A stretch of DNA of 64,000 bases from an uncultured Holophagales bacterium. GTDB taxonomy: Bacteria; Acidobacteriota; Thermoanaerobaculia; UBA2201. Location: NCBI GenBank assembly GCA_964603505.1, contig CAZRVT010000009.1:309-64308 (forward strand), given 5' to 3'. The notes beneath the pieces are model-generated. The model was not told where the DNA came from. It ran no database searches and worked only from the letters and a program-made list of their open reading frames with translations. Below are positions 727 through 45,149 of the stretch, piece by piece. Made by a program: the position numbers and the translations under genes. Position 1 is the stretch's first letter. Each line of letters starts with the position of its first letter.

Positions 727-3700
727 TCACGGTTTCGCAATCCCTAACTCGCGCATCTGGTATCCCAGCGCCTGGGGCGTGATGCCCAACAGGGTGGCGG
801 CCTTCGGCCGGTCCCAGCCGCTCCGCTCCAGGGCCTGGACGATGACCTTCCGACGGTACTCCCGGATCAGCGCCTGATAGTTCCCCTCGATCTTCAACTC
901 GTCCCCCGGCGCCGGGGTGGGAGCCGGAGCGTGCCGGATGGAGAGGGGCTCCCCCTTCTGCACGTGGACCAGGCAGGCCAGGAGGAAGTTCTCCAGTTCG
1001 CGGACGTTGCCGCGCCACTCCTGCTCCATGAGGTAGGTGAGATACAGGGGATGCAGGTCCACCGGGGGGAGGTCGAAGAGGTGGCGGTTCTTCTCCACCA
1101 GGGCGCGCGCGATGAAGGGGATGTCTTCCCGCCGTTCCCGCAGGGGCGGCAGGTCGAGGGTGGCGACGGCGAGGCGGTAGAAGAGGTCCTCGCGGAACCG
1201 TCCCTCCCTGACCATGTCCTTGAGCGAGCGGTTGGTGGCGGTGACGAGGCGGAAGTCCACCTCGAACGACCGGGCGTCGCCGAGCCGCTGGATCCGCCGG
1301 TCGTTGAGGACCCGCAGGAGCTTGGCCTGCAGGGCGGGGGGAAGCTCGCCCACCTCGTCGAGGAAGAGGGTTCCCCCATGGGCGGCCTCGATGACGCCGG
1401 GACGGTCCATGAGGGCCCCGGTGAAGGCCCCCTTGCGCCACCCGAAGATCTCCCCCTCGAAGAGCGATTCGGGGATGGAGGCGCAGTTGACGGCGACGAA
1501 CGGGCCGCCGCGGCGGGGGGAGGCGCGGTGGAGGGCCTGGGCCAGCACCTCCTTGCCGCTCCCCGTTTCGCCGGTGATGTGAACGGGAATGGCGGCGCGG
1601 GCCACCTTTTGCGCTTCGTACACGACGAGGGCGCTCTTGGGGCAGGCATAGACGAACCCGTGGAACACCTGCGGCTCGCTGTGGGTGAGGACCTCGGGCC
1701 GCCGCACCGGGGCCTCCCCGAGGCGCGCCTGCAGGGTGAGCCCCCACACCTTCCAGAACTCCTCGGGAAGGAGCGAATAATGGGGCGCGGAGAGCGTGAG
1801 GACGCCGCCGCCAGGCAGTTCGAGCGCGCGCTTCTCGGTCAGGGTCCCGGCGGCGTAGACCTTCCCGCTGGGGAGGGTGATCGCGAAGGGGACGGGGCCG
1901 GCGTCGGGGTCGAACTCCTCGCGGGTGAGGAACTCGAACGCCTGCACGACCCCGACGTCCACCCGCGGCTGGGCCACCGCCTCCCAGCCGAGGGCCCCCC
2001 GCTCCTTGAGCAGGTCGAGCGCGCGCCGCAGGCGCGCCTGGGGGACCTTTCCCGGGTGGAACCGGTCCCACTCCAGGGCGAGGACGGCCGCGGGGATGGG
2101 GTTGGGCTCCGCGGCGAGGCGCTCCCACGCGGTCCAGTCCATCCCCTTCTCCGCCGTCACGAGGGGAAGGGGCGGGACCGGGCCGGGGCAGGCCTTCCGC
2201 AGGGCCCCCTGGCCGAGCAGACGCTCCCGGTCCGCGCGGTCCTGGGGGATATCGGCCCTCCATCCTTTGAGGTCCCGGAGGGCGGCGCGGTAGTCCTCCC
2301 GGTCCCCCCACTTGGCCAGTTCCGTCCTCAGGATGGGGACCTTGACCCCCCACGGGTGTGCCGAAAGGGGGATGCCGAGGGCCTCGATCTCCTCCAGGCG
2401 GGCGCGCACCTCCCGGTGGCTGCCCAACCAGTAATGGACCCGCGCCAACTGGACCAGGTCGAAAAAGAGGGCGTGGCGGTCGTCCCGCTCTCGGTCGGCG
2501 GCCGCCGCGGCCGTGAAGATGCGCTCCGCCTCGGCCAGATCCCCCTCCTGGAGGGCGATCTCGCCGAGGTTGAAGTACACCAGGTTGAGCTTGCGCTCGC
2601 TCCCGAGGTGGCGGGCCAGGGCCGCGGCCGAGGCGAAGGCCATGCGGGCCTCCCCGGGCCGATCCGACTCGTTGAGGATGACGCCCAGGTCGTTGAGGGC
2701 GAGAGCCTCCTGCCACAGCCAGCCGCGCGAGACGGCCTCCGCCAGCCAGCGGTGGGCCGCCTCCGCCGCGTCCTTCAGGCGCCCCAGGGTGTAGAAGAAG
2801 TAAGACAGGTATCGGTAGTATTGGCCCGCCACCGCTGGCGGGAGGTGCGGGAGGGCCTCCTGGCAGCGCGCCAGGAGGGCCATGGCCTCTTCCCGGTCCC
2901 CCTCGCTGGCTCGCAGGTCGGCCAGGGCAAGGGCGGCGAGGGCGCCCCACGGGGACCGCAGGTCGCCGGCGGCCCCTTCCAGGACCTGCCGGGCCTCCGC
3001 CGGCCGCCCGTCCCTTCGCAACCGCCGCGCCTCCAGGAGGGGGGCCGCGTCGGGGGCTTCGGGGGTCCGGTCGTCCGGACCGGTCATGCCCTCCCAACGG
3101 AGGAGGAACGCGGGGAGGGCCAGGTCGGGGTCGCCGGGACGCTCCGCGCTCAGGGGGGAGAACTTCTCGGCATCCCCCTGCCAGGCGGCGACGAGCGCCT
3201 CGCACCGCTCCGGTTCCTCCGCCCGGTCGAGCCGTTCCAGGACGCCGAACACATTCCCTTCGCGGGCCGACACGGTCAGGGCGTCCCGCTCCCGGGCCGC
3301 CGCGGCGGCGGGGTCGAGGAGCGCCTCCAGGGCGCGCCGCACGGGACCCGGCGGGTCCCCCCGTTCCAGCACCTCCCGCGCGACGGCGGGATCGGGAGGG
3401 GCGTCCGGGAGGGGACGGGCGGGCCACCACCGCTCCTCCCGGAGGAACGCCCACCCTTCGGCCTCCAGCGCCTCTCCCATCGGCGGCGCCAGGGCGGCCG
3501 CGGGCAGGGGGACCCCGGCCTCCGCCAGAAGGGCCCACCCCTTGCGCGCGGCGGGGGAGGGCGGCGGTGGTTGGACCGGATCGGGGGCGAGGTCGGACAC
3601 CAGTTCGCCGGGGAGGAGGCCCCGCCTCCGGCCCAGGGCCTGGAGCCGCGCGATAGCCTGGGAAGGGCCGAGCCCGGGCAGGTGGACCGTCTTGAGGAAG

Positions 3701-9642: not shown

Positions 9643-10613
9643 CCCTCGACGATTACGCCCTCCGCCTCAAGACCCAGATGGAAGCCATGGAGGCCCTCCT
9701 CCTGCGGGAACTGGAGCGCAGCCCGGAGGCCGTGGCGGCCGCCTCGCGCTACATCACCGACGCCGGGGGGAAGCGCCTCCGCCCCCTCCTCCTGCTGGCG
9801 TGCTCGGACCTGCTCGGGTACCGCCGGAAGGACCGGCTGGTCTTCGCGGCGGTGGTGGAGGCCCTCCACACCGCCACCCTCATCCACGACGACGTCATCG
9901 ACGAAGCCGATCTCCGCCGCGGCCGCCGGACTCTTCACCACGACCTGGGCAACCGTCTCTCCATCCTGGTGGGCGACTATCTCTACGCCCGGGTCATCCG
10001 CCTCGCCGTGGAGAAGGGGAACCTCGGGATCATCCAGCTCCTCTCCGACGCCACCCTGAAGATGACCGAGGGGGAGATCTGGGGCCTCACCCGGGCGGGC
10101 GATCCCCGGCTCACCATCGAGGAGTACTTCGCCCACATCGAGAACAAGACCGGCTACCTCTTCGCCGCGGCCGCCTCCATCCCCGCCCTGCTGGCCGGGC
10201 GGGAGCGTCTCGTCCGCCGGCTCCACGGGTTCGGCCTCCGGTTCGGGGTCTTCTTCCAGATCCTCGACGACCTGCAGGATTTTGCCGCCCGCGAGGAGGA
10301 GGCCGGCAAGCCGGTCATGCACGACCTCGAGGAGGGCAAGCTGGGGATCCCCATCCTGCTCCTGCTCCGGCGCCTCCGTGGGCGGGAGCGTCGGGAGGTC
10401 CTCGCCTGGCTGGAGGACGCCCCCCGCCGTCGTTACGACCTTCTGGACCGGCTGAAGGCGCACGGCACGCTCGTCGAGACCCGCGAGCTGGCCCGTGCCC
10501 ATGCCGCCGAAGCGTGTCGCGCCTTGTCGATTTTTCCGGCTTCCCCCGCTCTGGAGCTCCTTACCGCCCTTCCGGAGCGGCTCCTCTCCCTCCCCGCCTT
10601 TTCTCGTCTGTAG
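9639..10613 (+). CDS. Polyprenyl diphosphate synthase (IspB-type, trans-prenyltransferase)
   Basis: GGKRLRP, LIHDDVIDEADLRRG (first DDxxD) and FQILDDLQD (second DDxxD). Start uncertain: TTG at 9639 overlapping the LolA-like stop, or ATG at 9678. Confidence 0.85.
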   Translation: MTLDDYALRLKTQMEAMEALLLRELERSPEAVAAASRYITDAGGKRLRPLLLLACSDLLGYRRKDRLVFAAVVEALHTATLIHDDVIDEADLRRGRRTLHHDLGNRLSILVGDYLYARVIRLAVEKGNLGIIQLLSDATLKMTEGEIWGLTRAGDPRLTIEEYFAHIENKTGYLFAAAASIPALLAGRERLVRRLHGFGLRFGVFFQILDDLQDFAAREEEAGKPVMHDLEEGKLGIPILLLLRRLRGRERREVLAWLEDAPRRRYDLLDRLKAHGTLVETRELARAHAAEACRALSIFPASPALELLTALPERLLSLPAFSRL

Positions 10614-32839: not shown

Positions 32840-34291
32840 ATGACGACCCAACTCTCCGTCCGCGAACCGGTGGTGGTGGGGCGGTTCTATCCCGGGGACC
32901 GCGCCGCTCTGCAGAAGGAAGTGAAGGGATACCTGGAAGCCGCCCCCGACCCCAAGATCGAGGGGCCGGTTCTGGCCCTCGTCTCGCCCCACGCGGGGTA
33001 CTCGTTCTCCGGGCCGACGGCGGGCCGGGCGATGAAGGCCCTGGCGGGGAGTGGGGTGAAGCGGGTTCTTTTGATCGGGACGGGGCACGCGGCCTACTAC
33101 GAGCGCGGGGCGGTGCTGGCCGATTACGACGCTTTCGCCACGCCGCTCGGGCCGGTCCCGGTGGACCGCGCGGCCGTGGCCGGGTTGGCGAAACAGGCCG
33201 GCTTCAAGGTGGCCAACCACCTCCATGCGCGGGAGCATTCACTGGAAGTGCAGCTTCCGTTCCTCCAGGAGGTCCTTCGGGAGTTCTCCATCGTTCCGAT
33301 GGTGATGGGGGGGCAGACGACGCCCGAGGACGCCGACGCCGTGGCCCGGGGCCTGCGGCCCCTGCTGGGCGAAAAGACGATCCTGGTCCTCTCCACCGAC
33401 TTCACCCATTACGGCCCCAACTACGACTACGTGCCGTTCCGCGAGGAGGTCTCCGCGCGGATGCGCGCCCTCGATTGGGGGGCGTGGGAGCTGGTGCGCC
33501 CGGGGTTCCAGGAGCGGTTCGCCGCCTACATCGAGACCACCGGAGCGACGGTGTGCGGCGAAAAGGGGCTGATGGTCCTCTGCGCCCTCCTGCCGTCCGG
33601 CGCGAAAAAAACGACGCTTCAATACACCTCCAGCGGCGAGGTCCTCCAGGACTACGACAACGCCGTGGGGTACCTGGCGGGGGCGTTCACCGGGCAGTGG
33701 AACGGCCCGACGCCGACGCCCGCGCGGAAGCCCCATTCCGGCAACCTGGCGGCGGCGGAGAAGAAGGCCCTGGTGCGCCTGGCCCGCGGGGCCCTCGTCT
33801 CGCATGTCGCCGGCGCCGACGACCTCTCCCGCGTCCTGCGGGACCTGGACCTGACTCCGGGCCTGACGGGCGTGGCCGGCGCCTTCGTCACGCTGAAGGT
33901 GGGGGAGGACCTGCGGGGGTGCATCGGCTCCATCGAGGGGCGGGAGCCGCTGTGGCTTTCGGTGGTCCACAACGCCGCCAACGCCGCCACGCGCGATCCC
34001 CGGTTCCGCCCCGTTCGGCCGGAGGAGCTGACGCTTCTTTCGGTCGAGGTCTCGGCCCTCTCCCCCATGAAACCGGTCGCCTCCTACAAGGATATCGTTC
34101 TGGGGACCCATGGGGTCGTGCTGGAGAAACGGGGGCGTAGCGCCGTCTTCCTCCCGCAGGTGGCCACCGAGACGGGGTGGACGCTCGACCAATTCCTCTC
34201 CCACCTGGCGCAGAAGGCGGGGCTGGCGGCTTCGGATTGGAAGGACGGGGCCTCATTCCGCGTTTTCACCGCCGAGGTGATCCATGAATGA
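32840..34291 (+). CDS. Fused AmmeMemoRadiSam system protein B (Memo-like) and protein A (AMMECR1 domain)
   Basis: N-terminal half is Memo-like (VVVGRFYPGD, SPHAGYSFSG, STDFTHYGPNYDY). C-terminal half is AMMECR1-like (GAFVTLKVGEDLRGCIGS, AVFLPQVATETGWTLDQFLSHLAQKAGL). Start set at MTTQLSV (32840). Confidence 0.8.
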   Translation: MTTQLSVREPVVVGRFYPGDRAALQKEVKGYLEAAPDPKIEGPVLALVSPHAGYSFSGPTAGRAMKALAGSGVKRVLLIGTGHAAYYERGAVLADYDAFATPLGPVPVDRAAVAGLAKQAGFKVANHLHAREHSLEVQLPFLQEVLREFSIVPMVMGGQTTPEDADAVARGLRPLLGEKTILVLSTDFTHYGPNYDYVPFREEVSARMRALDWGAWELVRPGFQERFAAYIETTGATVCGEKGLMVLCALLPSGAKKTTLQYTSSGEVLQDYDNAVGYLAGAFTGQWNGPTPTPARKPHSGNLAAAEKKALVRLARGALVSHVAGADDLSRVLRDLDLTPGLTGVAGAFVTLKVGEDLRGCIGSIEGREPLWLSVVHNAANAATRDPRFRPVRPEELTLLSVEVSALSPMKPVASYKDIVLGTHGVVLEKRGRSAVFLPQVATETGWTLDQFLSHLAQKAGLAASDWKDGASFRVFTAEVIHE

Positions 34292-35210
34292 CTGGGACCG
34301 GAGGGAGGTGCTGGCGGGAGTCGTCGGCCTCCTGGCGATGAATCTGCCCGCGGGGACCCCGGCGGCCGCCGATGTCGGCGTGGCCTTCGGGGGAAGTGTT
34401 GAAGAGAAGGCCGCCAAGGCCATCCTCTACTCGACGGGACGGGAGCCGACGGCTTTTTTCCGGTCGGTCCTTTCGCAGAAGGATGTCGTCGGCCTGAAAC
34501 TGAATTGCCTCGCCGGGCGGCCGCTTGCGCCGCGGGTGGAACTGGTGGAGGCGCTGGTGCGGTTCCTCGTCCGGGCCGGGGTGCCCGAGGAGCAGGTGAT
34601 CGTGTGGGAGCGCTCCGACCGCGAGCTCCAGCGGGCCGGGTTCGACCTCCGGACCGAAGGGAAACGGTACCGCTGTTACGGCACCAACGGGCAGTACGAC
34701 AAGGAGGTTTCCGAGAGCCGATCCGTCGGGACCTGCTTCTCGTCTATCCTGTCGCAGCAAATCACCAAACTCATCAATGTGGGGGTCCTCAAGGACCACG
34801 ACCTCGCGGGGGTCTCCGTGGGGCTGAAGAACTACTACGGCGTCATCCACAACCCCAACAAGTACCACGGCAACAACTGCACCCCCGGCGTGGCCCACCT
34901 GGCGAACCATCCCCTCATCCAGGGCAAGCACATTCTGACGGTGATTGACGCCGAGGTGTGCCAATACCACGGCGGCCCGGCCTACCGCGCCGACGCCGTC
35001 GTCCCCTTCGGGGCCGTGGCCGCCTCGGCCGACCTCGTCGCCTGCGATTTCTGGGGCCTGCGCGAAATCGAGCGGATCCGCAAGGAGAAGGGGAAAGGGA
35101 CCCTGGAGGCCGAGAAGCGTGCCCCGCAGTGGCTGAAGGTCGCGGCGGAGATCGGGCTGACGAGGGTTCGCCCCGAGACGCTGAAGGTGGCCACGGACGC
35201 CTCATCGTAG
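34284..35210 (+). CDS. Tat-signal protein, possibly DUF362 family, inserted inside the AmmeMemoRadiSam operon
   Basis: Twin-arginine signal MNDWDRREVLAGVVGLLAMNLPAGTPAAA. The family assignment (DUF362-like) is from memory of motifs and is uncertain. 8-nt ATGAATGA overlap with the upstream gene and 3 nt before the radical SAM gene. Confidence 0.55.
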   Translation: MNDWDRREVLAGVVGLLAMNLPAGTPAAADVGVAFGGSVEEKAAKAILYSTGREPTAFFRSVLSQKDVVGLKLNCLAGRPLAPRVELVEALVRFLVRAGVPEEQVIVWERSDRELQRAGFDLRTEGKRYRCYGTNGQYDKEVSESRSVGTCFSSILSQQITKLINVGVLKDHDLAGVSVGLKNYYGVIHNPNKYHGNNCTPGVAHLANHPLIQGKHILTVIDAEVCQYHGGPAYRADAVVPFGAVAASADLVACDFWGLREIERIRKEKGKGTLEAEKRAPQWLKVAAEIGLTRVRPETLKVATDASS

Positions 35211-35213
35211 CCC

Positions 35214-36287
35214 ATGCCCGAGCCGACGCTCCCTCCCGCCCTCCCCGAGCCCCTGACGGAGGCCGACCGGCAGTTCCCCCCGGTGGAGGCGAAGTACTGG
35301 AAGAAGCTGGACGGCGGACGGGTGGAGTGCGTCCTCTGCCCCGCCCAATGCCGGGTGGCCGACCGGGAGCGGGGGGCCTGCGGCGTGCGGGAGAATCGGG
35401 GCGGCGTCTATTACACGCTCGTCCATTCGCGGGTCTGCTCCGCCCATGTGGACCCCATCGAAAAGAAGCCCCTCTTCCACGTTCTCCCCGGCACCACCGC
35501 CTTCTCCCTGGCCACCCCCGGCTGCAACATGGCCTGCTCCTTCTGCCAGAACTGGGAGATCAGCCAGTTCCGTCCGGAGCAGATCGATTGCCAGAAGCTC
35601 CCGCCGGACCGGGTGCCGCCGCGCGCGAAGCGCTGGGGGGCCCCCACGGTCGCCTTCACCTACACCGAGCCGGTGGTCTTCACCGAGTACCTGCTCGACG
35701 TTGCCGCCGCGAACCGGAAGGAGGGCCTGCGCTCGGTCGTCATCACCAACGGCTGGATCCAGGAGGAACCCCTCAAGGACTGGCTGAAGGCCCTGGATGC
35801 CGTGAAGGTGGACCTCAAGGCCTTCACGCAGAAGTTCTACGAGGAGCAAACCGGCGGGCGGCTCATCGACGTCCTCGACACGCTGATCCGCGTCCGGAAG
35901 GCCGGGGTGTGGCTGGAGATCGTCACTCTCTTGATCCCCACCCTCAACGATTCCGCGAAGGAGGCGGCCTCCCTCGCCCGCTGGGTGGCGAGGAATCTCG
36001 GCCCCGAAGTGCCCCTTCACTTCACCCGGTTCCACCCGGAATACCGCCTCCGCAACCTCCCCGCGACGCCGGTTCGCACCCTCGAGAGGGCCCGCGATGC
36101 CGCCCTGGCCGAGGGGCTGAAGTTCGTCTACCTCGGCAACGTCCCCGGCCATCCCGCCGAGAACACCGCCTGCCCACAGTGCGGCAACGTCATTCTCAAA
36201 CGCTACGCGTTGAGCCTGACCGAGAACCATGTCGTCAAGGGCGCATGCGAATATTGCAAGGCGAAGATTCCGGGGGTGTGGGCCTAA
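35214..36287 (+). CDS. AmmeMemoRadiSam system radical SAM enzyme
   Basis: CNMACSFCQNW (CxxxCxxC radical SAM cluster), N-terminal cysteines (CVLCPAQC...C) and C-terminal CPQCG...CEYC. The architecture matches the radical SAM partner of Memo/AMMECR1. Confidence 0.8.
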   Translation: MPEPTLPPALPEPLTEADRQFPPVEAKYWKKLDGGRVECVLCPAQCRVADRERGACGVRENRGGVYYTLVHSRVCSAHVDPIEKKPLFHVLPGTTAFSLATPGCNMACSFCQNWEISQFRPEQIDCQKLPPDRVPPRAKRWGAPTVAFTYTEPVVFTEYLLDVAAANRKEGLRSVVITNGWIQEEPLKDWLKALDAVKVDLKAFTQKFYEEQTGGRLIDVLDTLIRVRKAGVWLEIVTLLIPTLNDSAKEAASLARWVARNLGPEVPLHFTRFHPEYRLRNLPATPVRTLERARDAALAEGLKFVYLGNVPGHPAENTACPQCGNVILKRYALSLTENHVVKGACEYCKAKIPGVWA

Positions 36288-36384
36288 GATCAGGCGACAG
36301 GGCGCCGGCGGCGGCTAACAAAAAGCGGGCCGCAGGGCCGTAGAGACACCCGTCGCAGGGGCACAGCGGGCGGTGCCCGGCCGC

Positions 36385-36414
36385 TTTACATATTCGCCCA
36401 TCGTCGCTTATAAT
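36385..36414 (+). promoter_or_regulatory. Sigma-70-like promoter TTTACA-17 nt-TATAAT ending 11 nt before the kinase ATG (near-leaderless)
   Basis: Near-consensus hexamers with a 17-nt spacer, then cagatttcact ATG. Confidence 0.55.
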
Positions 36415-36425
36415 CAGATTTCACT

Positions 36426-38957
36426 ATGGAAGGGGATCGGACCGGGAAAAGCACCACGCCGATGCCGCCGCCGGGCATCCATGAATACGCCTTCGAGCGC
36501 GGGCAGCTTCTCCTGGACCGGTTCGAGGTCCTGGAGCCGCTCGGTGTTGGGGGCGTCGGCGAGGTGTATCGGGTCCGGGACCATTGGCTCGGCGAAGAGG
36601 TCGCCCTCAAGATCGTCTTGCGCGGTTCCTTGCGCGCGGTCGATCTGGAGCGGGTCCGGCGCGAAGTCGCCATCGCGAGGAAGCTGAGTCATCCCAACAT
36701 CCTGAAGTATTACGATCTTCATGAATTCGATCGCGGCCTGGCCCTCGGCATGGAGTGGGTCCGGGGCAGCACCCTTCAGGACCTTCTCGACCGTGGGGGG
36801 CCGCTCGACGAGAACACCATCCGGGCCATCCTGCCGCAGATCGTCGAGGCGATGGAGCACCTTCACGCGAACGAGATCGTCCACCGCGACATCAAACCTT
36901 CGAACCTCTTCATCGGCGACGACGGGACGGTCAAGCTGGGGGACTTCGGCATCGTCCACACCGAAGGGGCGGAGGGGCTGACCCTGACGGGGGAGGCGAT
37001 CGGGACTCCCACCTACATGTCCCCGGAGCAGATCCAGGGCAAAAACCTCACGCCCGCCGCGGACTACTATTCTCTGGGGATCACGCTTTACGAACTGGCG
37101 TCCGGCCGGGTCCCCTTCGAGGGGACCTACGGCGAGGTGGCTTCGGCGCACCTTCACCAGCCGCTGTCCGGTGTGTGCGGCTTGCCGCTCTCGGCCCCCC
37201 TGAAGCGGCTCATCCTGGGGCTCCTTGATAAGCGACCGGAACGGCGCTGGGGCGCAATCGAGGCCCGGCATTACTGCACCCGGCGCCGCCTGCCCCTCTT
37301 GCCGCAGCAGCGGCGTCGGGCAGTGATTGCGGCCGCCATCATCTGCCTCGCGGGCGGCGCGGCATTCTTGGCGCCCCGCAGCTTGGCCCGCACCCGGCCA
37401 TTGGAGGTGACCATCGAGGGCCGAACGGTCTCCTGCGCGCAAGCTGGACGGTTGCGATGGCAAAAGAAATTCGATTCCGCCGTCCTCGGACACGTCCTCA
37501 TGGATGTGGACGGCGATGAGGCGGACGAGGTCATTCTCGGATTGCGTCTTCGGGTGTCCTCTGGTTCATCCCCCTCGGCCTTCCCGACATGGAAAGCTTC
37601 CGGGGACCCGGGTCCACCCCTGTTCTTAAATACAGGGCATCTGCTTGATTCCTTTGGCGCCCATTCTCCGAATTATCGGGCGATCATCAAGCGTCAAAAG
37701 TTGTTTTCCAAGAGCCAGGATGATCTCGTCATCTCTTTGCAGCACGAAACCTTTTATCCATTCTATCTCGCTATTTGGAGCGCGGAGCAGAGAAAAGAGA
37801 TCCTTTCGTTGGAGCATCCCGGCTGGATCAATCAAATCGAGCGATGGAAGGACGGCTTAGCCATTTGGGGGGGGAATGCCCGTCTGCTCCATTTGACCTG
37901 CTTGGCCCTCACGGGGCCCGTGGGGAGGGAGGGGACGGCAGATGGATTGGGCCTGGGGGGGGCCCAACCCAATGTTTCAAATCTGCGCGCTTATTATCTG
38001 CTGGAGAATTTCAACACGGGCAGCCAGGTGGCCGAGATGAGCCCGGAGGGCAGCATTCAAGTGCCCTCGTCCAAAGGCGATCTGGTTCTGCGAGACGATA
38101 ATACTCTGGAGGGAATGGGGCCGGGGGCCTCCAACCGCTCTCTTCATTGCTTGCACGCGGTCCTCCAGGTGCGTGAGCAGATGAACATCGGGCGTTGGCC
38201 GGAGGCGGCGAGTTTGATTGAAGAGACACGCAGGATCGCCGAGGAAAGCGGCCTCCAGGGGTGGGAGCTGGTGATGAAATGGCTGGATGCGGAACGCCTC
38301 GCCCGGGAAGGTGATATCGAAGGCGCCGTGAAGAAATGCTTTTCCCTAGTTAAGGAGCACCCCACCCGCGCCCAGGAACTCCCGGTTTGGGCGGGTTATT
38401 ACCGCTATCTCGCGGGGGATTTCGCCGGCGCCCGGACCACCTGGCTGGGACACCCTTCCGCCGCCCTCGTGGGAGGGGGAAAGGAGTGGGAGCTGTATCC
38501 CGCCTGCGTGTTCGCCTCCCTCCTGGAGGGTGTCCCGGACGACCGCCTCCGCGCCATGATCGAGGAATATTCGGCTGGCATGGAACAGGGGTATTACTGG
38601 CGGCGGTTCCTGGCGATGCAGAGAGGGTGGATCCCGCTCCTTCGAGGCGACCCGGCCGCGGCCATCCCGGTGCTTAAGGGCGCCCTGACCGAACCGAGCT
38701 TCGAGCCGCACGCTGCCGGCTACTTCCTGGCCCGCATCCTGACCGGGACCTACGATCCGGCCGAGATGGAGGCCTACGCCGGAAAACAGGGCGGCAACCC
38801 CCTCTACCTCCAGTGGATCGCCGCCGTCGGCGTGGGGGACCGGGACCGTGCCAAGCAGTGTTGGCGGGCGATCGAGTTGGAGGCCTGGGAGTCCCAGGAC
38901 ACGGCGCTGATGGTGCCGGTGATCAACCGCCTGCGGGGCCGCCTGAAGCGCCATTGA
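36426..38957 (+). CDS. Hanks-type Ser/Thr protein kinase with one TM helix and a large unusual C-terminal region
   Basis: LGVGGVGEVY (Gly loop), VALK (lysine), HRDIKPSN (catalytic loop), DFG, GTPTYMSPE. A TM segment AVIAAAIICLAGGAAFLA is followed by ~500 aa with no recognisable domain, including a low-GC stretch (~37560-38120). Confidence 0.9.
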   Translation: MEGDRTGKSTTPMPPPGIHEYAFERGQLLLDRFEVLEPLGVGGVGEVYRVRDHWLGEEVALKIVLRGSLRAVDLERVRREVAIARKLSHPNILKYYDLHEFDRGLALGMEWVRGSTLQDLLDRGGPLDENTIRAILPQIVEAMEHLHANEIVHRDIKPSNLFIGDDGTVKLGDFGIVHTEGAEGLTLTGEAIGTPTYMSPEQIQGKNLTPAADYYSLGITLYELASGRVPFEGTYGEVASAHLHQPLSGVCGLPLSAPLKRLILGLLDKRPERRWGAIEARHYCTRRRLPLLPQQRRRAVIAAAIICLAGGAAFLAPRSLARTRPLEVTIEGRTVSCAQAGRLRWQKKFDSAVLGHVLMDVDGDEADEVILGLRLRVSSGSSPSAFPTWKASGDPGPPLFLNTGHLLDSFGAHSPNYRAIIKRQKLFSKSQDDLVISLQHETFYPFYLAIWSAEQRKEILSLEHPGWINQIERWKDGLAIWGGNARLLHLTCLALTGPVGREGTADGLGLGGAQPNVSNLRAYYLLENFNTGSQVAEMSPEGSIQVPSSKGDLVLRDDNTLEGMGPGASNRSLHCLHAVLQVREQMNIGRWPEAASLIEETRRIAEESGLQGWELVMKWLDAERLAREGDIEGAVKKCFSLVKEHPTRAQELPVWAGYYRYLAGDFAGARTTWLGHPSAALVGGGKEWELYPACVFASLLEGVPDDRLRAMIEEYSAGMEQGYYWRRFLAMQRGWIPLLRGDPAAAIPVLKGALTEPSFEPHAAGYFLARILTGTYDPAEMEAYAGKQGGNPLYLQWIAAVGVGDRDRAKQCWRAIELEAWESQDTALMVPVINRLRGRLKRH

Positions 38958-39074
38958 GCCCACCCCCAGCCGATCCTGCCCGTAGGAACCGATGTCGTTT
39001 TTCGTGCGCTTGTCAAGCCCCGATGAAGCCCATTTTTATGTTGCGAGATCCGGAGAGAGCCAGTTTTTCCAGGG

Positions 39075-39585
39075 CGGGGGGACCCCGCAACGTTCAGCGC
39101 GGAACTGGGAATTGCCTTGGAGGGGCGGCGGGATCGCCGCCGTCGGCCTGCTCCCGGCAAGACGAGTTTCCGAAGCCTCAAGTCCGAACGGCCTCGACCC
39201 CCGCCGGGGTCAGATGATTTTTTTCTCGTCCAACGGATGGATGAGATGGTGCACGCTCCGCACCGCCTCGCGGTTGACCCAGACGCGGATGTTGTTGGTG
39301 ACGGGGTCGGCGGGGACCACATAGAAGCCGACGGCCTGGGGGAGACGGGCGACGTCGTTGACGAACCCCTCCATCATCTCCCCGTCCTTGAAGACGACCC
39401 GCACCTTCTGCCCGGAGCTGAGGGTGAAGGTCTGCCGGCCGGCCTGGGCCTTCACCCCCGTCCCCTCGAACGACTTCACGTAAAAGGCGCCCTTGACCTT
39501 CTTCAGGTCCACCCAGTGGATCTTCTCCTCCAGGTCCTTGAACTCCAGGACGGTCTCCCCGGGGGCGATGACGGAGCCGAACCCC
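39075..39585. repeat. Direct repeat copy 1 (511 bp, identical to 40498..41008)
   Basis: A base-for-base identical sequence appears twice. The six-frame track shows identical peptides from both copies (e.g. GGGTPQRSARNWELPWRGGGIAAVGLLPARR... and MWSPPTPSPTTSASGSTARRCGACTISS...). Confidence 0.95.
39196..39224 (+). terminator. Possible intrinsic terminator (plus-strand orientation) inside repeat copy 1: GACCCC-cgcc-GGGGTC then agatga TTTTTTT
   Basis: A 6-bp GC stem with a 7-T run 6 nt downstream. It could terminate the kinase transcript. The identical element in copy 2 (40619..40647) follows hepT. Confidence 0.4.
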
Positions 39586-39590
39586 CGCAA
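39210..39590 (-). pseudogene. 5'-truncated copy of the tandem Sm-like-motif small protein (lacks the first ~16 codons; TTG is the only available start)
   Basis: Residues 2-126 are identical to residues 17-141 of the 40633..41058 product. The repeat boundary falls inside the coding sequence. The frame is open upstream to a TAA with no ATG. Confidence 0.5.
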
Positions 39591-39600
39591 CGATGGTTCC

Positions 39601-39629
39601 TTGTAAATGGACGGAATCTTTGGGATAAT
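39601..39629 (+). promoter_or_regulatory. Sigma-70-like promoter TTGTAA-17 nt-GATAAT ending 6 nt before the MNT GTG start (leaderless transcript)
   Basis: Hexamers with a 17-nt spacer. A start codon directly at the expected +1 is typical of toxin-antitoxin operons. Confidence 0.5.
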
Positions 39630-39635
39630 GGAATC

Positions 39636-40052
39636 GTGCAGAGCGATCAGGAGCGTATCGTCCAGACGGTTTTAGCGCTCCACCCACGAGCGGAGGCCGT
39701 CTATCTCTTCGGGTCCTTCGGGACCGAGGGAGAGTTGCCGGGCAGCGACGCCGACATCGCCATCCTACTTCCTGCCGGAGAGGCCGCGGCTGGCGGTGCT
39801 CTGGGGTTGATCGAGACGCGGTTCGCCCTGGAGAAGGTCTTGGGAAGGGGGGTGGACCTGCTGAATCTGCGGTGCGTGCCCACCGTCCTCCAGAAGGAAG
39901 TGATTCTGGCGGAGAGGCGTATCTACTGCGGGGATCCCTTCGCCGCCGACACTTTTGAAATGCTTGTGCTCTCCCTTTATCAGAAGTTGAACGAGGAACG
40001 GCGGGGCATCCTGGAAGAGGGGTTGAGAAGCGGGAGGTTCTTCGCCGGATGA
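39636..40052 (+). CDS. mntA: MNT-type nucleotidyltransferase antitoxin of a HepT/MNT toxin-antitoxin pair
   Basis: LFGSFGTEGELPGSDADIAIL (GSx9-13DxD nucleotidyltransferase motif). Start set at the GTG giving MQSDQERIVQTV. ATGA overlap with hepT. Confidence 0.8.
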   Translation: MQSDQERIVQTVLALHPRAEAVYLFGSFGTEGELPGSDADIAILLPAGEAAAGGALGLIETRFALEKVLGRGVDLLNLRCVPTVLQKEVILAERRIYCGDPFAADTFEMLVLSLYQKLNEERRGILEEGLRSGRFFAG

Positions 40053-40468
40053 ACGACGTCCTGATCAATAAAAGGGAAAGCATCGAGCGGTGCATTCGCC
40101 AGGCCCGGGAATACTACCGGCGGGAAAGCGGGGTCCCGTTCAGCGAGGATTTTCTGAAACAGGATGCCATCGCCATCAATATCCAGCGGGCATGCGAACA
40201 GGCCATTGACCTTGCCAATCATCTCATCCGAACGCACAAACTCGGGCTTCCCAAGGAGAGCCGGGAAAGCTTTATCATCCTGGCGCGCTTCGGACTCATT
40301 CCCGCGGACCTGTCGGAACGGCTGCAACGGATGGTGGGCTTCCGGAACATTTTGATTCATCAGTACCAGGTCCTGGATCTGGGCATCCTCGTGGATATCG
40401 TCCAAAACCGCCTGCAGGACCTTCTGGATTTTGCCGACCGAGTTTGCACGGAAGCCGGGATCGAGTAG
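40049..40468 (+). CDS. hepT: HepT (DUF86) RNase toxin
   Basis: RNILIHQY (Rx4HxY catalytic motif) and the ~139-aa size typical of HepT. Confidence 0.8.
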   Translation: MNDVLINKRESIERCIRQAREYYRRESGVPFSEDFLKQDAIAINIQRACEQAIDLANHLIRTHKLGLPKESRESFIILARFGLIPADLSERLQRMVGFRNILIHQYQVLDLGILVDIVQNRLQDLLDFADRVCTEAGIE

Positions 40469-40497
40469 GTTTCCCGAGTTCTTGGATTGTTCCCAGG

Positions 40498-41008
40498 CGG
40501 GGGGACCCCGCAACGTTCAGCGCGGAACTGGGAATTGCCTTGGAGGGGCGGCGGGATCGCCGCCGTCGGCCTGCTCCCGGCAAGACGAGTTTCCGAAGCC
40601 TCAAGTCCGAACGGCCTCGACCCCCGCCGGGGTCAGATGATTTTTTTCTCGTCCAACGGATGGATGAGATGGTGCACGCTCCGCACCGCCTCGCGGTTGA
40701 CCCAGACGCGGATGTTGTTGGTGACGGGGTCGGCGGGGACCACATAGAAGCCGACGGCCTGGGGGAGACGGGCGACGTCGTTGACGAACCCCTCCATCAT
40801 CTCCCCGTCCTTGAAGACGACCCGCACCTTCTGCCCGGAGCTGAGGGTGAAGGTCTGCCGGCCGGCCTGGGCCTTCACCCCCGTCCCCTCGAACGACTTC
40901 ACGTAAAAGGCGCCCTTGACCTTCTTCAGGTCCACCCAGTGGATCTTCTCCTCCAGGTCCTTGAACTCCAGGACGGTCTCCCCGGGGGCGATGACGGAGC
41001 CGAACCCC
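40498..41008. repeat. Direct repeat copy 2 (511 bp, identical to 39075..39585)
   Basis: See copy 1. In this copy the repeat ends inside the intact small gene (codon ~17). Confidence 0.95.
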
Positions 41009-41058
41009 TTCATCAACGAGCCGTCCAAGAACTTCAGCACCATGATGCTGTCGAACAT
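40633..41058 (-). CDS. Small protein with two tandem Sm-like strand motifs (paralog B, intact copy)
   Basis: VLKFLDGSLMKGFGSV and VRVVFKDGEMMEGFVNDV, then GFYVVPADPVTNNIRVWVN. Same motif architecture as 8729..9136 ([15 protein letters not shown] / [15 protein letters not shown] / GFFVYP...NNLKVFVV). Confidence 0.6.
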   Translation of the reverse strand: MFDSIMVLKFLDGSLMKGFGSVIAPGETVLEFKDLEEKIHWVDLKKVKGAFYVKSFEGTGVKAQAGRQTFTLSSGQKVRVVFKDGEMMEGFVNDVARLPQAVGFYVVPADPVTNNIRVWVNREAVRSVHHLIHPLDEKKII

Positions 41059-41213
41059 ACGGCCTTATTCTACAACAAATTGCATGCGGAAAGGGCGGAG
41101 CCCCCTTCCGCCCCGGGAAGTGAATTCCCGAAAATCCGCTCTCTCCCCGCGAGGAACCCACCCCGTCCGGCCCGAAGCGCAGGCCGGCCCGATATCCCAA
41201 GGAGGGGGCGGAT

Positions 41214-41646
41214 CTAAGAGATCGGCCGGTCCAGGAGGGGGAGGAACGGGGCCAACAGGGGCTCCACGGCCGCCGGGGGCCGCCCCATGATCGTGACGGT
41301 CACCTGCCGGCCGCCGAAGGAAACGCGGATGGAGGTGGAGTTCCCCCTCATGTCCAGGTCCTTGCTCGTGTAGAGCGGCTTGAAGGCCGCGAAGTCCAGC
41401 GCCCGGACCCGCTCCACGAGGCGCCTGTACGCCTCCTTGTCCAGCGTCCCGGAGGCCGTCCGCACCTGGGGCCGCTTGTCCATCCCTATCGAGGTGAGGG
41501 TGAGGGTGTAGTCGCGCCCGTTCAGTTCCAGGGCGCGCTTGCTCTGAAGGGTGCCGATGACCACCGTGGCCGTCAGGGGCGGCTCCGGGGCCGTAACGCA
41601 GGCGAGGGCAAGGACGCTAACGCAGGCGATCAGCCACGGCTTCCAC
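41214..41646 (-). CDS. Hypothetical lipoprotein
   Basis: GTG start giving VRWKPWLIACVSVLALACVTAPEPP (lipobox LALAC), then a protein-like mature region. 30-nt overlap with the proS end. Confidence 0.5.
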
Positions 41647-43320
41647 CGCACGGGCCACCTCCACGTCGGATTTTTCGCCGCTCCTGCGGTCGGCCAGCTC
41701 CACTTTTCCCTCCTTGACCTTTTTCGACCCGGCGACCACCTGGAGCGGGAAGCCGATAAGCTCGGCATCCTTGAACTTGACGCCGGCCCGCTCTCCGCGG
41801 TCGTCGTAGATGGCCTCGATGCCCCGCTCCATCAGCCCCGCGTACACCGCTTCCGCGGCGGCGCGGACGGCGGCGTCGTCGGGGTTCGTGGCGATGACGT
41901 CCACGAGATAGGGGGCCAGCGGCTTGGGCCACACGATCCCCATGTCGTCGTGGTTCTGCTCGATGGCGGCCGCCACCGTGCGCCCCATCCCCAGGCCGTA
42001 GCAGCCCATAATCATGGGGTGCGCGGCCCCCTTCTCGTCGAGGAAGACGCACTTCATCGGCTCGCTGTACTTGGTGCCCAGCTTGAAAATGTGCCCCACC
42101 TCGATGCCCCGGTACTGGGAGAGGGGCTGGCCGCAGGTGGCGCACGGCTCGCCGTCCCGGGCCAGGCGGAGGTCGGCGAAGGGGGGGAGCTCGAAGTCGC
42201 GCCCCGGATTGACGCCGACGAAGTGGGCGTCGGCGGCGTTGGCCCCGCACACGGCGTTCGCCATCCCGCGGACCGACTCGTCGGCCAGCAGGCGGACGCC
42301 CTTCAGCCCCACGGGCCCCGCGAACCCCTGCGGCGCGCCGGTGAGCTTCTCGATCTTGGCCTCGGAGGCCAGCGCCAGGTGCTGGGCGTCGAGGGCGTTC
42401 TTGAGCTTGACCTCGTTGACCTCCAGGTCGCCGCGGATGAGGACGGCGGCGAATTCGCGATCGGTCTCGTAGAGGAGGGTCTTGAGGATGCGGCGCGGCT
42501 CGACGCCCAGGAACGCGGCCACCTCCTCCACCGTCCGGGCGCCGGGGGTGGCGACGCGCTCCAGCGCCTTGGGCTTTTCGTCGGCGATCGTCGGAACGGC
42601 CGGGACCGACACCGCCTTCTCCGCGTTGGCCCCGTAGCCGCAGCCGGCGCAGCGGAAGACGACATCTTCGCCCGTGGAGGCCAGGACCATGAACTCGTGG
42701 GATTGCGAACCGCCGATGTTGCCGGTGTCGGCCTCCACGAGGGTGTACTGGAGCTGGCACCGCTCGAAGATGCGGCAGTAGGCGCCGTGGATCTTCCAGT
42801 AGACCTCGTCGAGCGACTCCGGGGTGGCGTGAAAGGAGTAAGCGTCCTTCATCGAAAATTCCCGCCCCCGCATGAGACCGAACCGGGGACGGATCTCGTC
42901 GCGGAACTTGGTCTGGATCTGGTAGAGGGTGAAGGGCAACTGCCGGTACGACTTCACGTGGTGGCGGACGATGTCGGTCACCACCTCCTCGTGGGTGGGG
43001 CCGAAGCAGAAGTCGCGGTCGTTGCGGTCCTTGATGCGGAGCAACTCCTTCCCGTATTTCTGCCAGCGGCCCGACTCCATCCAGAGCTCGGCGGGCTGGA
43101 CGGCGGGCATGTGGATCTCGATGCAGCCGATGCGGTCCAACTCCTCCCGCACGATGGCCTCCAGCTTCCGGAGGGACCGCAGCCCCAGGGGGAGCATGGA
43201 ATAGATGCCCGAGGCGGCCTTCTGGATCATGCCGCCCTTGAGCATCAGGCGGTGGGAGACCACCTCCGCGTCGGAGGGGACCTCCTTCAGGGTGGGGATG
43301 AAGCAGCCGGACCAGCGCAT
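41617..43320 (-). CDS. proS: Prolyl-tRNA synthetase (bacterial type with editing domain)
   Basis: Starts MRWSGCFIPTLKEVPSDAEVVSHRLMLKGGMIQK (compare E. coli [34 protein letters not shown]). Class II motifs 2 and 3 are present. AAGGAG lies 9 nt before the second ATG. The rest of the 1150-aa track ORF is an in-frame extension through the upstream gene. Confidence 0.9.
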   Translation of the reverse strand: MRWSGCFIPTLKEVPSDAEVVSHRLMLKGGMIQKAASGIYSMLPLGLRSLRKLEAIVREELDRIGCIEIHMPAVQPAELWMESGRWQKYGKELLRIKDRNDRDFCFGPTHEEVVTDIVRHHVKSYRQLPFTLYQIQTKFRDEIRPRFGLMRGREFSMKDAYSFHATPESLDEVYWKIHGAYCRIFERCQLQYTLVEADTGNIGGSQSHEFMVLASTGEDVVFRCAGCGYGANAEKAVSVPAVPTIADEKPKALERVATPGARTVEEVAAFLGVEPRRILKTLLYETDREFAAVLIRGDLEVNEVKLKNALDAQHLALASEAKIEKLTGAPQGFAGPVGLKGVRLLADESVRGMANAVCGANAADAHFVGVNPGRDFELPPFADLRLARDGEPCATCGQPLSQYRGIEVGHIFKLGTKYSEPMKCVFLDEKGAAHPMIMGCYGLGMGRTVAAAIEQNHDDMGIVWPKPLAPYLVDVIATNPDDAAVRAAAEAVYAGLMERGIEAIYDDRGERAGVKFKDAELIGFPLQVVAGSKKVKEGKVELADRRSGEKSDVEVARAVEAVADRLR

Positions 43321-45149
43321 GGCCATTTTCTCCTTGTCTCGAGTTTTACCGCATGCCACAATCTCCAGGGGATCCCGCCGGGGGCGGGAGGAAGCCGCCG
43401 GGCGCTCCGCCGGGCCTCCCGGGCCTCGGCGAGGCGGCCGAGAGCCCGCTCGGCCCCGGCCAGGGCCTCCAGAAGGGCGGCCGAGGGGTCGGTCCGCGCG
43501 GCCTCCCGCAGGTCCCGGGCCCCCTCCTCGATGCGCCCCAGGGCGCACAGCACGCGGCCGCGGGCTTCCAGGGCCGCCGCGGCGAGCTCCTCCGGGGCGA
43601 AATGAAGGGCGGTGCGGGCCAGGTCGAGGGCCTCTTCGAGGTGTCGCCCCTGCCGAACGAGGGCGCCGGCCCAGGCGGCGCAGGCCAGCGACTTTCCGTA
43701 GGGGGAGCGGATGCGCGCCGCCATCCGCTGGGCCTCCCGCTGGCAGGCAGCGTCCCGCCCCGCCTCGGCCAAAGAGGCCAGGGCGGCGGCCCACGCCGGC
43801 ACCAGCACCACTTCGGGGGCGCCGGTGCGCTCCAGGGCCCGGCTGGCGCGGAGGCAGGTCTCGCGCCGGCCGGTGCGGTGGGCCAGGACCGCCCACCCCA
43901 GGAGGGCCAGGGGGTGGCGGGGGAGGGGACGGGAGGCGGCCGCGTAGGCCTCCCGGGCCTCCTCCAACCGGCCGTCGGCCAGGGCCGCCTCGGCGGCGCG
44001 CAGGGCGTCCGCGGCGGTGGGGGGGACGGGGGCGATGGCGTTCCACCCCTCGGCCAAGGCCAGGGCTTGTTGGTATTTCCAGCGGGCGGGGCCGGTGCGG
44101 GAGAGCTCTTTGAGGACGCGTCGGGCCTTGCCCGGGCGGTCCCGGTCCAGGTAGCAGAGCCCGAGGAGAAACAGGGCCTCGGGGTCCGCCTGCCGCTCCC
44201 CGTAAAGGGCCTCCAGCAGAGGCAAGGCCTCGGGGGAGCGGCCCCGAGCGTAGAGGACCGAGGCAAGGGCGGCCCGCGCCGCGGGCTGGGGCTCGGCCGC
44301 CACCGCCGCCCGCAGCTCCGCCTCGGCCCGGTCGTTGCGCCGGAGCGAGGCGTAGAGGGTGCCGAGGGTGTAGCGCACCAGGAACGGCTGGGGCGCCTCC
44401 CCCTTGACCGACTCCAGAAGGCGGACCGCCTCGCCGGTGTCCCCGCGGAGGGCCTTGAGGAGCCCCAGGAGGAACCGCGCCTCGGGATGCCGCGGCTCCC
44501 GGGCAAGGGCCTTCGCCAGACAGCGGGCGGCCGGGGCCAGCTCGTCCCCCTGCAGATGGAACCCGGCGAGGAAGGTGAGGAGCTCGACGTTGCGTCCGTC
44601 CAGGGCCAGGGCCGCGCTCAAGGCGTCGAGGGCGGCGCCCCGCCCCTGGGCGGTGAGGTGGAAGAGGGCGCTGTCGAGGGCCCGGGTGAACCCCTTCAGG
44701 TCGTGCCCGCGGAAGGCCCCCAGGATGGCGTCGCGCTTTTGCATCAGCTTGTTGCGCTGCTCCATGAGGAAGAACTGGTCGGCCAGCACCTGCTCCCAGC
44801 GGTCGGTCCACTCCTGTTCTTCGAAGAGCCCTTTGTCGCGCAGGAGATCCCGCAGGGCCGCCACGCCGCCCTGCAGAATGGAGATCCCCCGGCCCTGGTT
44901 CTCCAGCTCGGCGACGGTCCGCTCCAGGAGGCGGCGAAGCTCGCGCTCCCGCTCCTCCAGGAGGCGGAGGCGGTCCTCCCACTCGGCTGCGGGGGGGACG
45001 GCCTCGAAGAAGTCCTCGCCGCGGTCGGTTCCCGAGACGATGTAGAGGGGGGCCCCGCAGGCCCGGCACTGGTCCGCCTCCTCGGGGTTGGAGCCCCCGC
45101 AGACCTGGCAGAGGACTTCAGGCCGTGTAAGTGTAGAATCCCTTCCCAC
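43287..45149 (-). CDS. Zinc-ribbon, coiled-coil and TPR-repeat protein
   Basis: CQVCGG...CRACG zinc ribbon at the N-terminus, a coiled-coil (LEERERELRRLLERTVAELEN), then multiple TPR-like Ala/Leu repeats. Start uncertain: a GTG (45149) overlaps the hbd end by ~30 nt, and there is no ATG downstream of the hbd stop until far inside. Confidence 0.6.
   Translation of the reverse strand: MGRDSTLTRPEVLCQVCGGSNPEEADQCRACGAPLYIVSGTDRGEDFFEAVPPAAEWEDRLRLLEERERELRRLLERTVAELENQGRGISILQGGVAALRDLLRDKGLFEEQEWTDRWEQVLADQFFLMEQRNKLMQKRDAILGAFRGHDLKGFTRALDSALFHLTAQGRGAALDALSAALALDGRNVELLTFLAGFHLQGDELAPAARCLAKALAREPRHPEARFLLGLLKALRGDTGEAVRLLESVKGEAPQPFLVRYTLGTLYASLRRNDRAEAELRAAVAAEPQPAARAALASVLYARGRSPEALPLLEALYGERQADPEALFLLGLCYLDRDRPGKARRVLKELSRTGPARWKYQQALALAEGWNAIAPVPPTAADALRAAEAALADGRLEEAREAYAAASRPLPRHPLALLGWAVLAHRTGRRETCLRASRALERTGAPEVVLVPAWAAALASLAEAGRDAACQREAQRMAARIRSPYGKSLACAAWAGALVRQGRHLEEALDLARTALHFAPEELAAAALEARGRVLCALGRIEEGARDLREAARTDPSAALLEALAGAERALGRLAEAREARRSARRLPPAPGGIPWRLWHAVKLETRRKWPCAGPAASSPP

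Follow-up and report, generated by a model that had tools for sequence, protein, structure and literature searches.

Duplicated sequences in bacteria can undergo concerted evolution through RecA-dependent gene conversion, as is seen for tufA and tufB in Salmonella and for the rRNA operons. Here we analyse a stretch of 64,000 nucleotides (the window) from an uncultured Holophagales bacterium of the Acidobacteriota, in which a type VII toxin–antitoxin (TA) module, mntA–hepT, lies between two identical direct copies of part of a neighbouring gene that encodes a protein of the DUF6982 family. Comparison with relatives suggests that the TA insertion and the partial duplicate are old, and that the identity of the two copies is probably the product of recent gene conversion.

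The module has a close described counterpart in Shewanella oneidensis, where the HepT/MntA pair SO_3166/SO_3165 likewise consists of two genes, antitoxin first, with overlapping stop and start codons (PMC7641770). The two systems share the families PF01909/PF18765 and PF01934 as well as both of the motifs, GSX10DXD and RX4HXY, that define class I HEPN/MNT pairs (PMC7641770), including the Tyr that is AMPylated. The proteins encoded in the window are no different in kind, and the toxicity of HepT and its neutralisation through poly-AMPylation by MntA are predicted. It is the context that is unusual: on either side of the module stands one copy of a 513-bp duplication that derives from the adjacent gene.

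Results

The repeat and its assembly

Positions 39073–39585 and 40496–41008 of the window form a direct repeat of 513 bp with a spacing of 1423 and without a single mismatch; a first-pass annotation of the window had reported perfect direct repeats of 511 bp, and only the length needed correction. A repeat of this length cannot have arisen by chance. At its left edge about nine further bases are alike but imperfectly so (TTTTTCCAG and TTGTTCCCA), at its right edge the identity ends abruptly, and alignments of the outer flanks past the repeat are no better than shuffled controls. The second copy (R2, 40496–41008) is part of the full-length DUF6982 gene (40633–41058, minus strand, 141 amino acids, Pfam PF22478) and is evidently the ancestral one. 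The first copy (R1, 39073–39585) holds codons 18–141 of that gene with the stop codon and the element X, the 137 nt of DUF6982 3′ flank at 39073–39209. At its truncated end R1 runs directly into the sequence upstream of mntA, which agrees with the earlier description of a copy that stops near codon 17 and continues into the mntA promoter and GTG start.

Between the two copies lies a unique insert of 910 bp (I, 39586–40495, plus strand), comprising a promoter, mntA, hepT and a further 27 nt. Its G+C content is 58%, compared with 66% for the repeat and 68% for the whole window. The ends of the repeat match both ends of this minimal TA cassette, one lying 14 nt ahead of the −35 box and the other 27 nt past the stop codon of hepT. 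The latter position, the left edge of R2, is the end of X, that is, the point of TA insertion. On the other side of R1, spacer L (38958–39072) separates the repeat from the stop codon of a protein kinase gene; no homologue of this spacer was detected in the flank of any relative, local alignments being no better than those of shuffled sequences.

The window corresponds to the JGI metagenome contig Ga0484935_000276 (3300043267), and the structure was checked independently in the Logan contigs of SRR12686701, which come from a different assembler with k = 31. These contigs match the window without mismatch and break exactly k − 1 = 30 nt inside the repeat. One of them (L055) runs from upstream of the kinase gene to 39102, 30 nt into R1, and another (L003) is exactly 39556–40525, the insert extended by 30 nt into the repeat on either side. 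Breaks of this kind are to be expected of a true repeat at k = 31, so the order repeat–insert–repeat is real and not an artefact of assembly. The kinase–repeat, repeat–mntA and hepT–repeat junctions are all confirmed by k = 31 contigs, and the only neighbour of the insert is the repeat; since the repeat stands on both sides, any linear genome that contains the insert must hold repeat–insert–repeat. Both the 141-residue protein and the 126-residue protein of the truncated copy are also found on a second JGI contig (65,070 bp) and on an NCBI contig (64,926 bp).

The locus in relatives

In the contig L012, whose DUF6982 protein is 89% identical to that of the window, proS, a DUF6438-like gene and the DUF6982 gene are followed by the 3′ end of a convergent hepT. 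The contig stays collinear with the window on both sides of the left edge of R2, and the junction between hepT and R2 is thus inherited. Two further contigs from sister metagenomes, L013 and L014, carry a truncated DUF6982 copy divergent from mntA, with the same truncation point as in the window. L014 is collinear with window positions 40054–39209 at 93.1% identity and without gaps, and the two contigs together show ~92–93% nucleotide identity to the window, their DNA being ~7–9% apart from it. The R1/mntA junction reads ...AAGGAACCATCGTTATGG|GGGTTCGG in L013 and L014 and ...AAGGAACCATCGTTGCGG|GGGTTCGG in the window (...CATCGTTGCGG|GGGTTCGG as excerpted for the comparison with L014).

The only GTDB representative with a close DUF6982 protein (77% amino-acid identity) is UBA2201 (L045, DCUZ01000099.1). 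Its genes run in the order radical SAM, kinase, ~340 nt, a hepT fragment (codons 44–139, 85% amino-acid identity) and DUF6982; there is neither mntA nor a truncated DUF6982 copy, and the I/R2 junction is collinear with the window. The TA of UBA2201 has decayed to a toxin fragment. Within the ~340 nt, a 38/45-nt tandem repeat (~3 copies) occupies L045 10935–11076, where mntA and hepT codons 1–43 would be. Another relative, L052 (DUF6982 77% identical in amino acids), is an empty site, in which DUF6982, X and a further element, Y, lead straight to a small open reading frame and a radical-SAM gene, with no kinase gene or TA. It has a single X–Y. A more distant group at 82% (L004–L007) retains the synteny with proS and has other genes after DUF6982.

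Homologues of MntA and HepT at 73–85% identity occur in unrelated contexts (L043, L044), which indicates that the cassette has moved in the past. Between the window and its relatives the divergence is 5% for mntA, ~10% for hepT and ~8% for proS; because the TA has diverged to the same order as proS, we take the cassette to have been inherited vertically within the clade of the window. The perfect identity of the copies had been read as the mark of a very recent event. This is not supported, as the R1/mntA junction is shared with L013 and L014 and the HepT/DUF6982 junction with L012 and UBA2201, and the duplication itself appears to be older than the split between the lineage of the window and that of L013 and L014.

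Two arrangements of other fragments were seen in these contigs. In L043 (Logan SRR29366200, positions 1399–3200) mntA–hepT (78% and 85% amino-acid identity) precedes a fragment of a homologue of the window kinase, its first ~135 codons, fused out of frame to a C-terminal fragment of a sigma-54 activator (GNIRE... lid and HTH_8), and an HTH_8 fragment homologous to this one is found past the truncated DUF6982 copy of L013. In L045 diverged direct duplicates of X and Y stand on both sides of the kinase gene, at 10435–10516/13765–13852 (72%) and 11116–11208/13873–13966 (81%).

Identity of the two copies

The copies in the window differ at none of 376 coding positions, whereas each of them differs at 29–33 of these 376 from the full gene of L012 and from the truncated copies of L013 and L014. 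An old, shared junction together with no differences within the genome and ~8% between lineages is the pattern of concerted evolution. Had there been no homogenisation, the copies in the window should differ by at least the distance between the lineages. Ongoing gene conversion, which had been mentioned as the alternative to a recent event, is thus supported by both the age of the junction and the 0/376 differences. The identical tract covers all the homology that is available, from the truncation junction, at which point the full gene starts to differ by what looks like a small indel, to the end of X. The end of X is also where the TA and the DUF6982 flank join in the window, in L012 and in UBA2201, and where the empty site continues into Y.

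Traces of recombination are seen in L012, L013 and L014 too, which are separate short contigs from sister samples. Over 203 central positions the full gene of L012 and the truncated copies of L013 and L014 show only one difference, against 9 in 55 and 8–10 in 50 positions at the two ends; in their first 55 nt the truncated copies are a single nucleotide away from the UBA2201 gene. L013 1–631 and L014 165–795 are 100% identical, a stretch that takes in mntA and the junction and reaches 326 nt into the truncated copy. The two then diverge completely 50 nt before the stop codon of that copy, which places a recombination breakpoint inside the repeat; past it there is a sigma-54-activator fragment in L013 and unrelated AT-rich sequence in L014. 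The mosaic relatives and the differing neighbours past the truncated copy together indicate that the locus recombines often.

Origin of the duplication

The 10-mer CCCCGCAACG is found in the window at 39083, 39583 and 40506 only (0.61 occurrences expected), two of the three sites being the same position of the repeat. The sites at the left edge and at the R1/mntA junction had led to the proposal that the structure arose through microhomology. However, the orthologous junction reads CCCCATAACG in L013 and L014, and the left-edge site reads ACCCGCCGCT in L012. As the match is absent in the relatives, the 10-mer is lineage-specific and younger than the junction and cannot be its cause; we have rejected it as a causal microhomology, since it is conserved at neither place in L012, L013 or L014, and it is not enriched.

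The ends of the repeat fit an insertion that duplicates its target, for example the integration by single crossover of a circle made up of the cassette and a DUF6982 arm. They also fit a tandem duplication of arm and cassette followed by the loss of one cassette, and a search for the remnant of a second cassette in spacer L (38958–39072 against the hepT-proximal end of the insert) gave nothing significant. If the TA did enter as a small cassette with target duplication, as first suggested, the event would be ancient. Long target duplications may recur at this locus, to judge from the X/Y copies (72–81%) around the kinase of UBA2201.

The toxin–antitoxin module

The antitoxin gene mntA (39636–40052, plus strand, GTG start) encodes a predicted type VII adenylyltransferase of 138 residues, a minimal nucleotidyltransferase, which matches the NCBIfam family MntA_antitoxin (NF047752) at 82.8 bits (cutoff 60) and also the Pfam families Polbeta and NTP_transf_2. 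Its motif GSFGTEGELPGSDAD at residues 26–40 fits GSX10DXD. The toxin gene hepT (40049–40468, plus strand) encodes a predicted type VII HEPN RNase of 139 residues that matches NCBIfam HepT_toxin (NF047751) at 143 bits (cutoff 60) and Pfam HepT-like PF01934 at 109.4 bits (cutoff 23.5, 1.2e-31), with the motif RNILIHQY at residues 99–106 fitting RX4HXY. It aligns over its full length with the S. oneidensis HepT chains 5yep and 6m6u (E = 4e-36). The two genes are adjacent and co-oriented, and the stop codon of mntA overlaps the start codon of hepT as ATGA (40049–40052). By these features mntA–hepT is a canonical, intact, chromosomal type VII TA pair, and its identification as HepT/MNT in the first-pass annotation is confirmed by family cutoffs, catalytic motifs and the match to S. 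oneidensis. A PADLOC search gave only generic kinase-domain and weak nucleotidyltransferase matches and no assignment to a defence system.

A promoter scan of 38800–41400 found a single promoter-like site (0.2 expected), a sigma-70-type promoter with an extended TG (TTGTAA-17-TGnGATAAT) at 39601–39629 on the plus strand. Since the start codon of mntA lies only 7 nt downstream of the −10 box, a leaderless mntA–hepT transcript is a reasonable prediction. The boxes and their spacing are kept upstream of the mntA homologues in L043 and L044, that is, in two other contexts, which strengthens the leaderless-type promoter recognised earlier.

No transposase, integrase, recombinase or insertion sequence (IS) was found in or beside the 910-bp insert, mntA and hepT being the sole genes in 39586–40495. 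The repeat analysis gave no inverted repeat pairs at the ends of the insert, and the flanking duplication is of 513 bp, not 2–15 bp. An autonomous mobile element (IS, transposon, integron cassette or integrative element) was considered and rejected for want of a recombinase, of terminal inverted repeats and of a short target-site duplication. We found no paper on TA modules flanked by converted gene fragments.

The DUF6982 gene and its truncated copy

The full DUF6982 protein matches PF22478 at 87.9 bits (cutoff 24.5, 8.1e-25) over residues 6–131 of 141. Its close orthologues are few, at 65–89% identity, and the JGI metagenome_contigs collection yielded distant homologues only (at most 57%, mostly ~30%), none of them with a neighbouring TA. 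The AlphaFold2 (AF2) model, of moderate confidence (pLDDT 70), has two small β-barrels, at residues 4–53 and 76–139, which in a Foldseek search show weak similarity to tandem Tudor and Sm/Hfq-like barrels; no function is assigned by this, and we found no paper that mentions DUF6982.

The truncated copy is an open reading frame of 126 codons (39210–39590, minus strand) with a TTG start that straddles the junction. It is called by both JGI and NCBI and is annotated as PF22478 by JGI. It is without the native promoter of the gene, and the scan of 38800–41400 found no minus-strand promoter-like site that might serve it. Its start codon is not conserved: the TTG of the window is TTA in L013 and L014, and the first in-frame ATG of these contigs, which would give 112 residues, is CTG in the window. 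In the AF2 model the part cut off corresponds to strand 1 (residues 4–10) and most of strand 2 (residues 15–20) of the N-terminal barrel. We consider that the truncated copy is probably a pseudogene or non-functional fragment whose frame is kept open by gene conversion.

Neighbouring genes and other features

The left neighbour of the repeat is the gene of a Ser/Thr protein kinase of 843 residues (36426–38957, plus strand; Pfam Pkinase, 1.7e-56), so that the TA does stand downstream of a kinase gene, as had been noted. In a tblastn search the kinase matched L045 at 58% identity over 837 residues, beside the HepT fragment and DUF6982, and the linkage of kinase, TA and DUF6982 is thus found in Holophagales UBA2201 as well; GTDB genomes searched with the kinase as anchor gave no relative. 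On the right, the JGI gene calls place a DUF6438-like gene at 41214–41564 and proS at 41617–43326, both on the minus strand, and this side is syntenic with L004, L012 and L053.

The last 11 codons of the kinase gene (38924–38957) are not homologous to the C-terminus of the UBA2201 kinase, and a match of 14 in 16 nt between the 3′ end of the gene and hepT 40406–40421 is weak, at the wrong offset and probably due to chance. The promoter region of the kinase gene (36374–36425, TTTACA ... TATAAT) is kept in UBA2201, and the remainder of the intergenic region between the radical-SAM and kinase genes differs; the copy of the X flank found there in UBA2201 is absent from the window, where only the kinase promoter is conserved. 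Further upstream (~33400–36287) are a Memo–AMMECR1 fusion, a DUF362 protein and a radical-SAM enzyme, a set of the AmmeMemoRadiSam type, whose radical-SAM gene is 82–83% identical in amino acids in UBA2201 and L052. Downstream of proS, 43300–44500 has 75–82% G+C within the gene of a TPR-repeat protein (window mean 68%). An Rfam scan of the whole 64 kb found no family at gathering score and no tRNA, rRNA or riboswitch.

The X flank consists of heptad repeats (GCAGTTG about six times, GTTTCGA about three to four times), each run being followed by a C-rich tract. It is found at L045 10429–10469, at L052 465–560 and, in a diverged version, at 39073–39209 and 40496–40632 of the window; the TA insertion point is directly after the second C-rich tract. 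A hairpin, GGCCTCGACCCCCGCCGGGGTC, lies at 39190–39211 on the plus strand, with a run of seven T starting 6 nt after the stem, and has a second copy at 40613–40634. The hairpin and T7 element of the first-pass annotation are found in R1 and R2 alike. Their match to a terminator is only weak, the T-run starting 6 nt off the stem, and the terminator scan gave 3 sites for 2.5 expected, so that the class is not enriched over shuffled sequences.

Discussion

The comparison suggests the following history for the locus. A mntA–hepT cassette of lower G+C content would have been inserted long ago where the 3′ flank of the DUF6982 gene ends. In the ancestor shared with L013 and L014 a partial copy of DUF6982, reaching from about codon 14–17 to the stop codon and including the whole 137-nt 3′ flank, would have come to abut the mntA promoter on the far side of the cassette. 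The direct copies, 910 bp apart, could then serve as substrates for recombination, and a recent non-crossover exchange (gene conversion) in the genome of the window would have made them identical over all of their homology. Through a crossover between them the TA would be removed precisely, and an intact DUF6982 gene would remain. Such loss of the TA may be counter-selected through addiction, and this could explain the persistence of an unstable structure. We consider an old TA insertion with a partial duplicate, made uniform by recent gene conversion, to be the probable explanation of the data, though some way from certain, conversion being the mechanism that we infer from the pattern of differences.

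Several observations weigh against this explanation. The argument from mosaic tracts in L012 and in L013 and L014 assumes that these contigs represent one population, and no second lineage has both copies on one contig. The 3′ flank past the stop codon of the truncated copy is common with the window for ~27 nt in L013 and not at all in L014, which carries instead ~45 nt of X flank of the UBA2201/L052 type; either L013 and L014 lost the flank or the left junction of the window is newer than the right one. The dN/dS of the truncated copy, 0.3–0.7 on small counts, does not separate a pseudogene from a selected paralogue, and in the window its TTG is 7 nt after AAGGAA, so that expression is possible. 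Lastly, the identity of the copies was read from assemblies, and a de Bruijn assembler can pop bubbles, so that copies with few differences could appear identical.

This last point leads to the alternative that survives best, although we regard it as unlikely: the duplication would be real and old, but its perfect identity would be a consensus in which the assembler merged a few differing sites and which was written twice. The contig does come from a metagenome assembly, the repeat is a single shared node in the independent k = 31 graph, and if L012 and L013 are one population then the copies there differ by 5.6%, so that identity would not be general. However, three assemblies give the same two proteins, differences of several per cent are normally resolved, and at most a handful of single-nucleotide polymorphisms could be hidden. 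Even with these few, recent homogenisation would still be needed to set against the 8% divergence between lineages.

It is rather improbable that the structure was re-created recently, whether by a fresh template-switch duplication or by a recombinase-free translocatable unit of 1423 bp, in which the TA and a 513-bp arm were excised as a circle by RecA recombination and re-entered DUF6982 by a single, Campbell-type crossover. Such a unit would agree with the coincidence of the repeat ends with both ends of the minimal cassette, with the left end of the repeat falling exactly at the insertion point that the empty site L052 defines, with the bracketing of the UBA2201 kinase by copies of the target flank and with the longer 3′ flank of R1 in the window than in its relatives. 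The assembly graph (L→R, R→I, I→R, R→b) also fits a circle or extra tandem units. On the other hand, the R1/mntA junction is inherited and not new, the TA has diverged as much as the flanking genes, and the TA homologues elsewhere (L043, L044) are without a DUF6982 arm. A diverged donor would moreover have yielded chimeric copies, whereas excision and reintegration within the same clone would be indistinguishable from conversion by its outcome. The more general idea, that the TA and a 0.5-kb DUF6982 arm form a recombinase-free selfish unit whose 1423-bp circle can enter any genome with DUF6982 through host recombination, we hold to be improbable. If it were true, the intact target would always be restored, addiction would penalise loss, and the X/Y flanks around the kinase of UBA2201 would be a second product of the same insertion process.

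A much smaller likelihood attaches to the truncated copy being a paralogue that still functions in an N-terminally shortened form, with divergent transcription from the region of the mntA promoter and under purifying selection; the TA would then be enclosed by a locus of two DUF6982 family genes. Divergence of ~8% has left the frame open in all three lineages, the gene callers annotate it, and the AAGGAA at its 7-nt spacing might serve the TTG. But the start codon varies between lineages, the native promoter is missing and no other was seen on that strand, the N-terminal barrel has lost its first strand and most of its second, and conversion from the functional copy would also give an open frame. 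Finally, although exact repeats longer than the reads are classic sites of misassembly, a genome with a single DUF6982 copy and a misjoined second one is scarcely credible, as the insert has only the repeat on both sides in two different assemblers and the relatives independently show the truncated-copy/mntA and hepT/full-copy junctions.

With an old duplicate maintained by gene conversion as our preferred explanation, the interest of the locus is modest, since it combines known phenomena in ordinary components, none of which is new, and no long-standing question depends on it. It does carry a caution: a perfect repeat around a TA mimics the fresh insertion of a mobile element, and it is comparison that points to an old structure kept uniform by recombination. 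It would also be a natural case of a promoter-less gene fragment staying ‘alive’ by conversion from its functional parent. With the TA placed so that precise deletion restores the wild-type gene, the locus offers a convenient setting in which to test addiction against RecA-mediated loss. More widely, the site is found empty, with a decayed TA, with an intact TA and with varied neighbours among the relatives, and the junction of DUF6982, kinase and radical-SAM genes appears to be a rearrangement hot spot in Holophagae-like genomes.

Two groups of known systems resemble the locus as a whole. As in Campbell integration by single crossover, in amplifiable or translocatable units and in integrative elements for which the 3′ end of the target gene is duplicated (attL/attR), direct repeats of the target gene's 3′ part stand on either side of the insert, an intact copy of the gene is preserved, and precise pop-out by homologous recombination is possible. 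In contrast to these, the insert has no integrase, transposase, IS or inverted terminal repeats, and the repeat greatly exceeds the usual length of att cores and of the target duplications made by transposons. The likeness to tufA/tufB and the rRNA operons is in the pattern of divergence: the paralogues in the window are identical while their orthologues have diverged, and the relatives show mosaic tracts. In contrast to those systems, one of the partners here is a promoter-less fragment, and the two copies enclose a TA module as direct repeats with only 0.9 kb between them.

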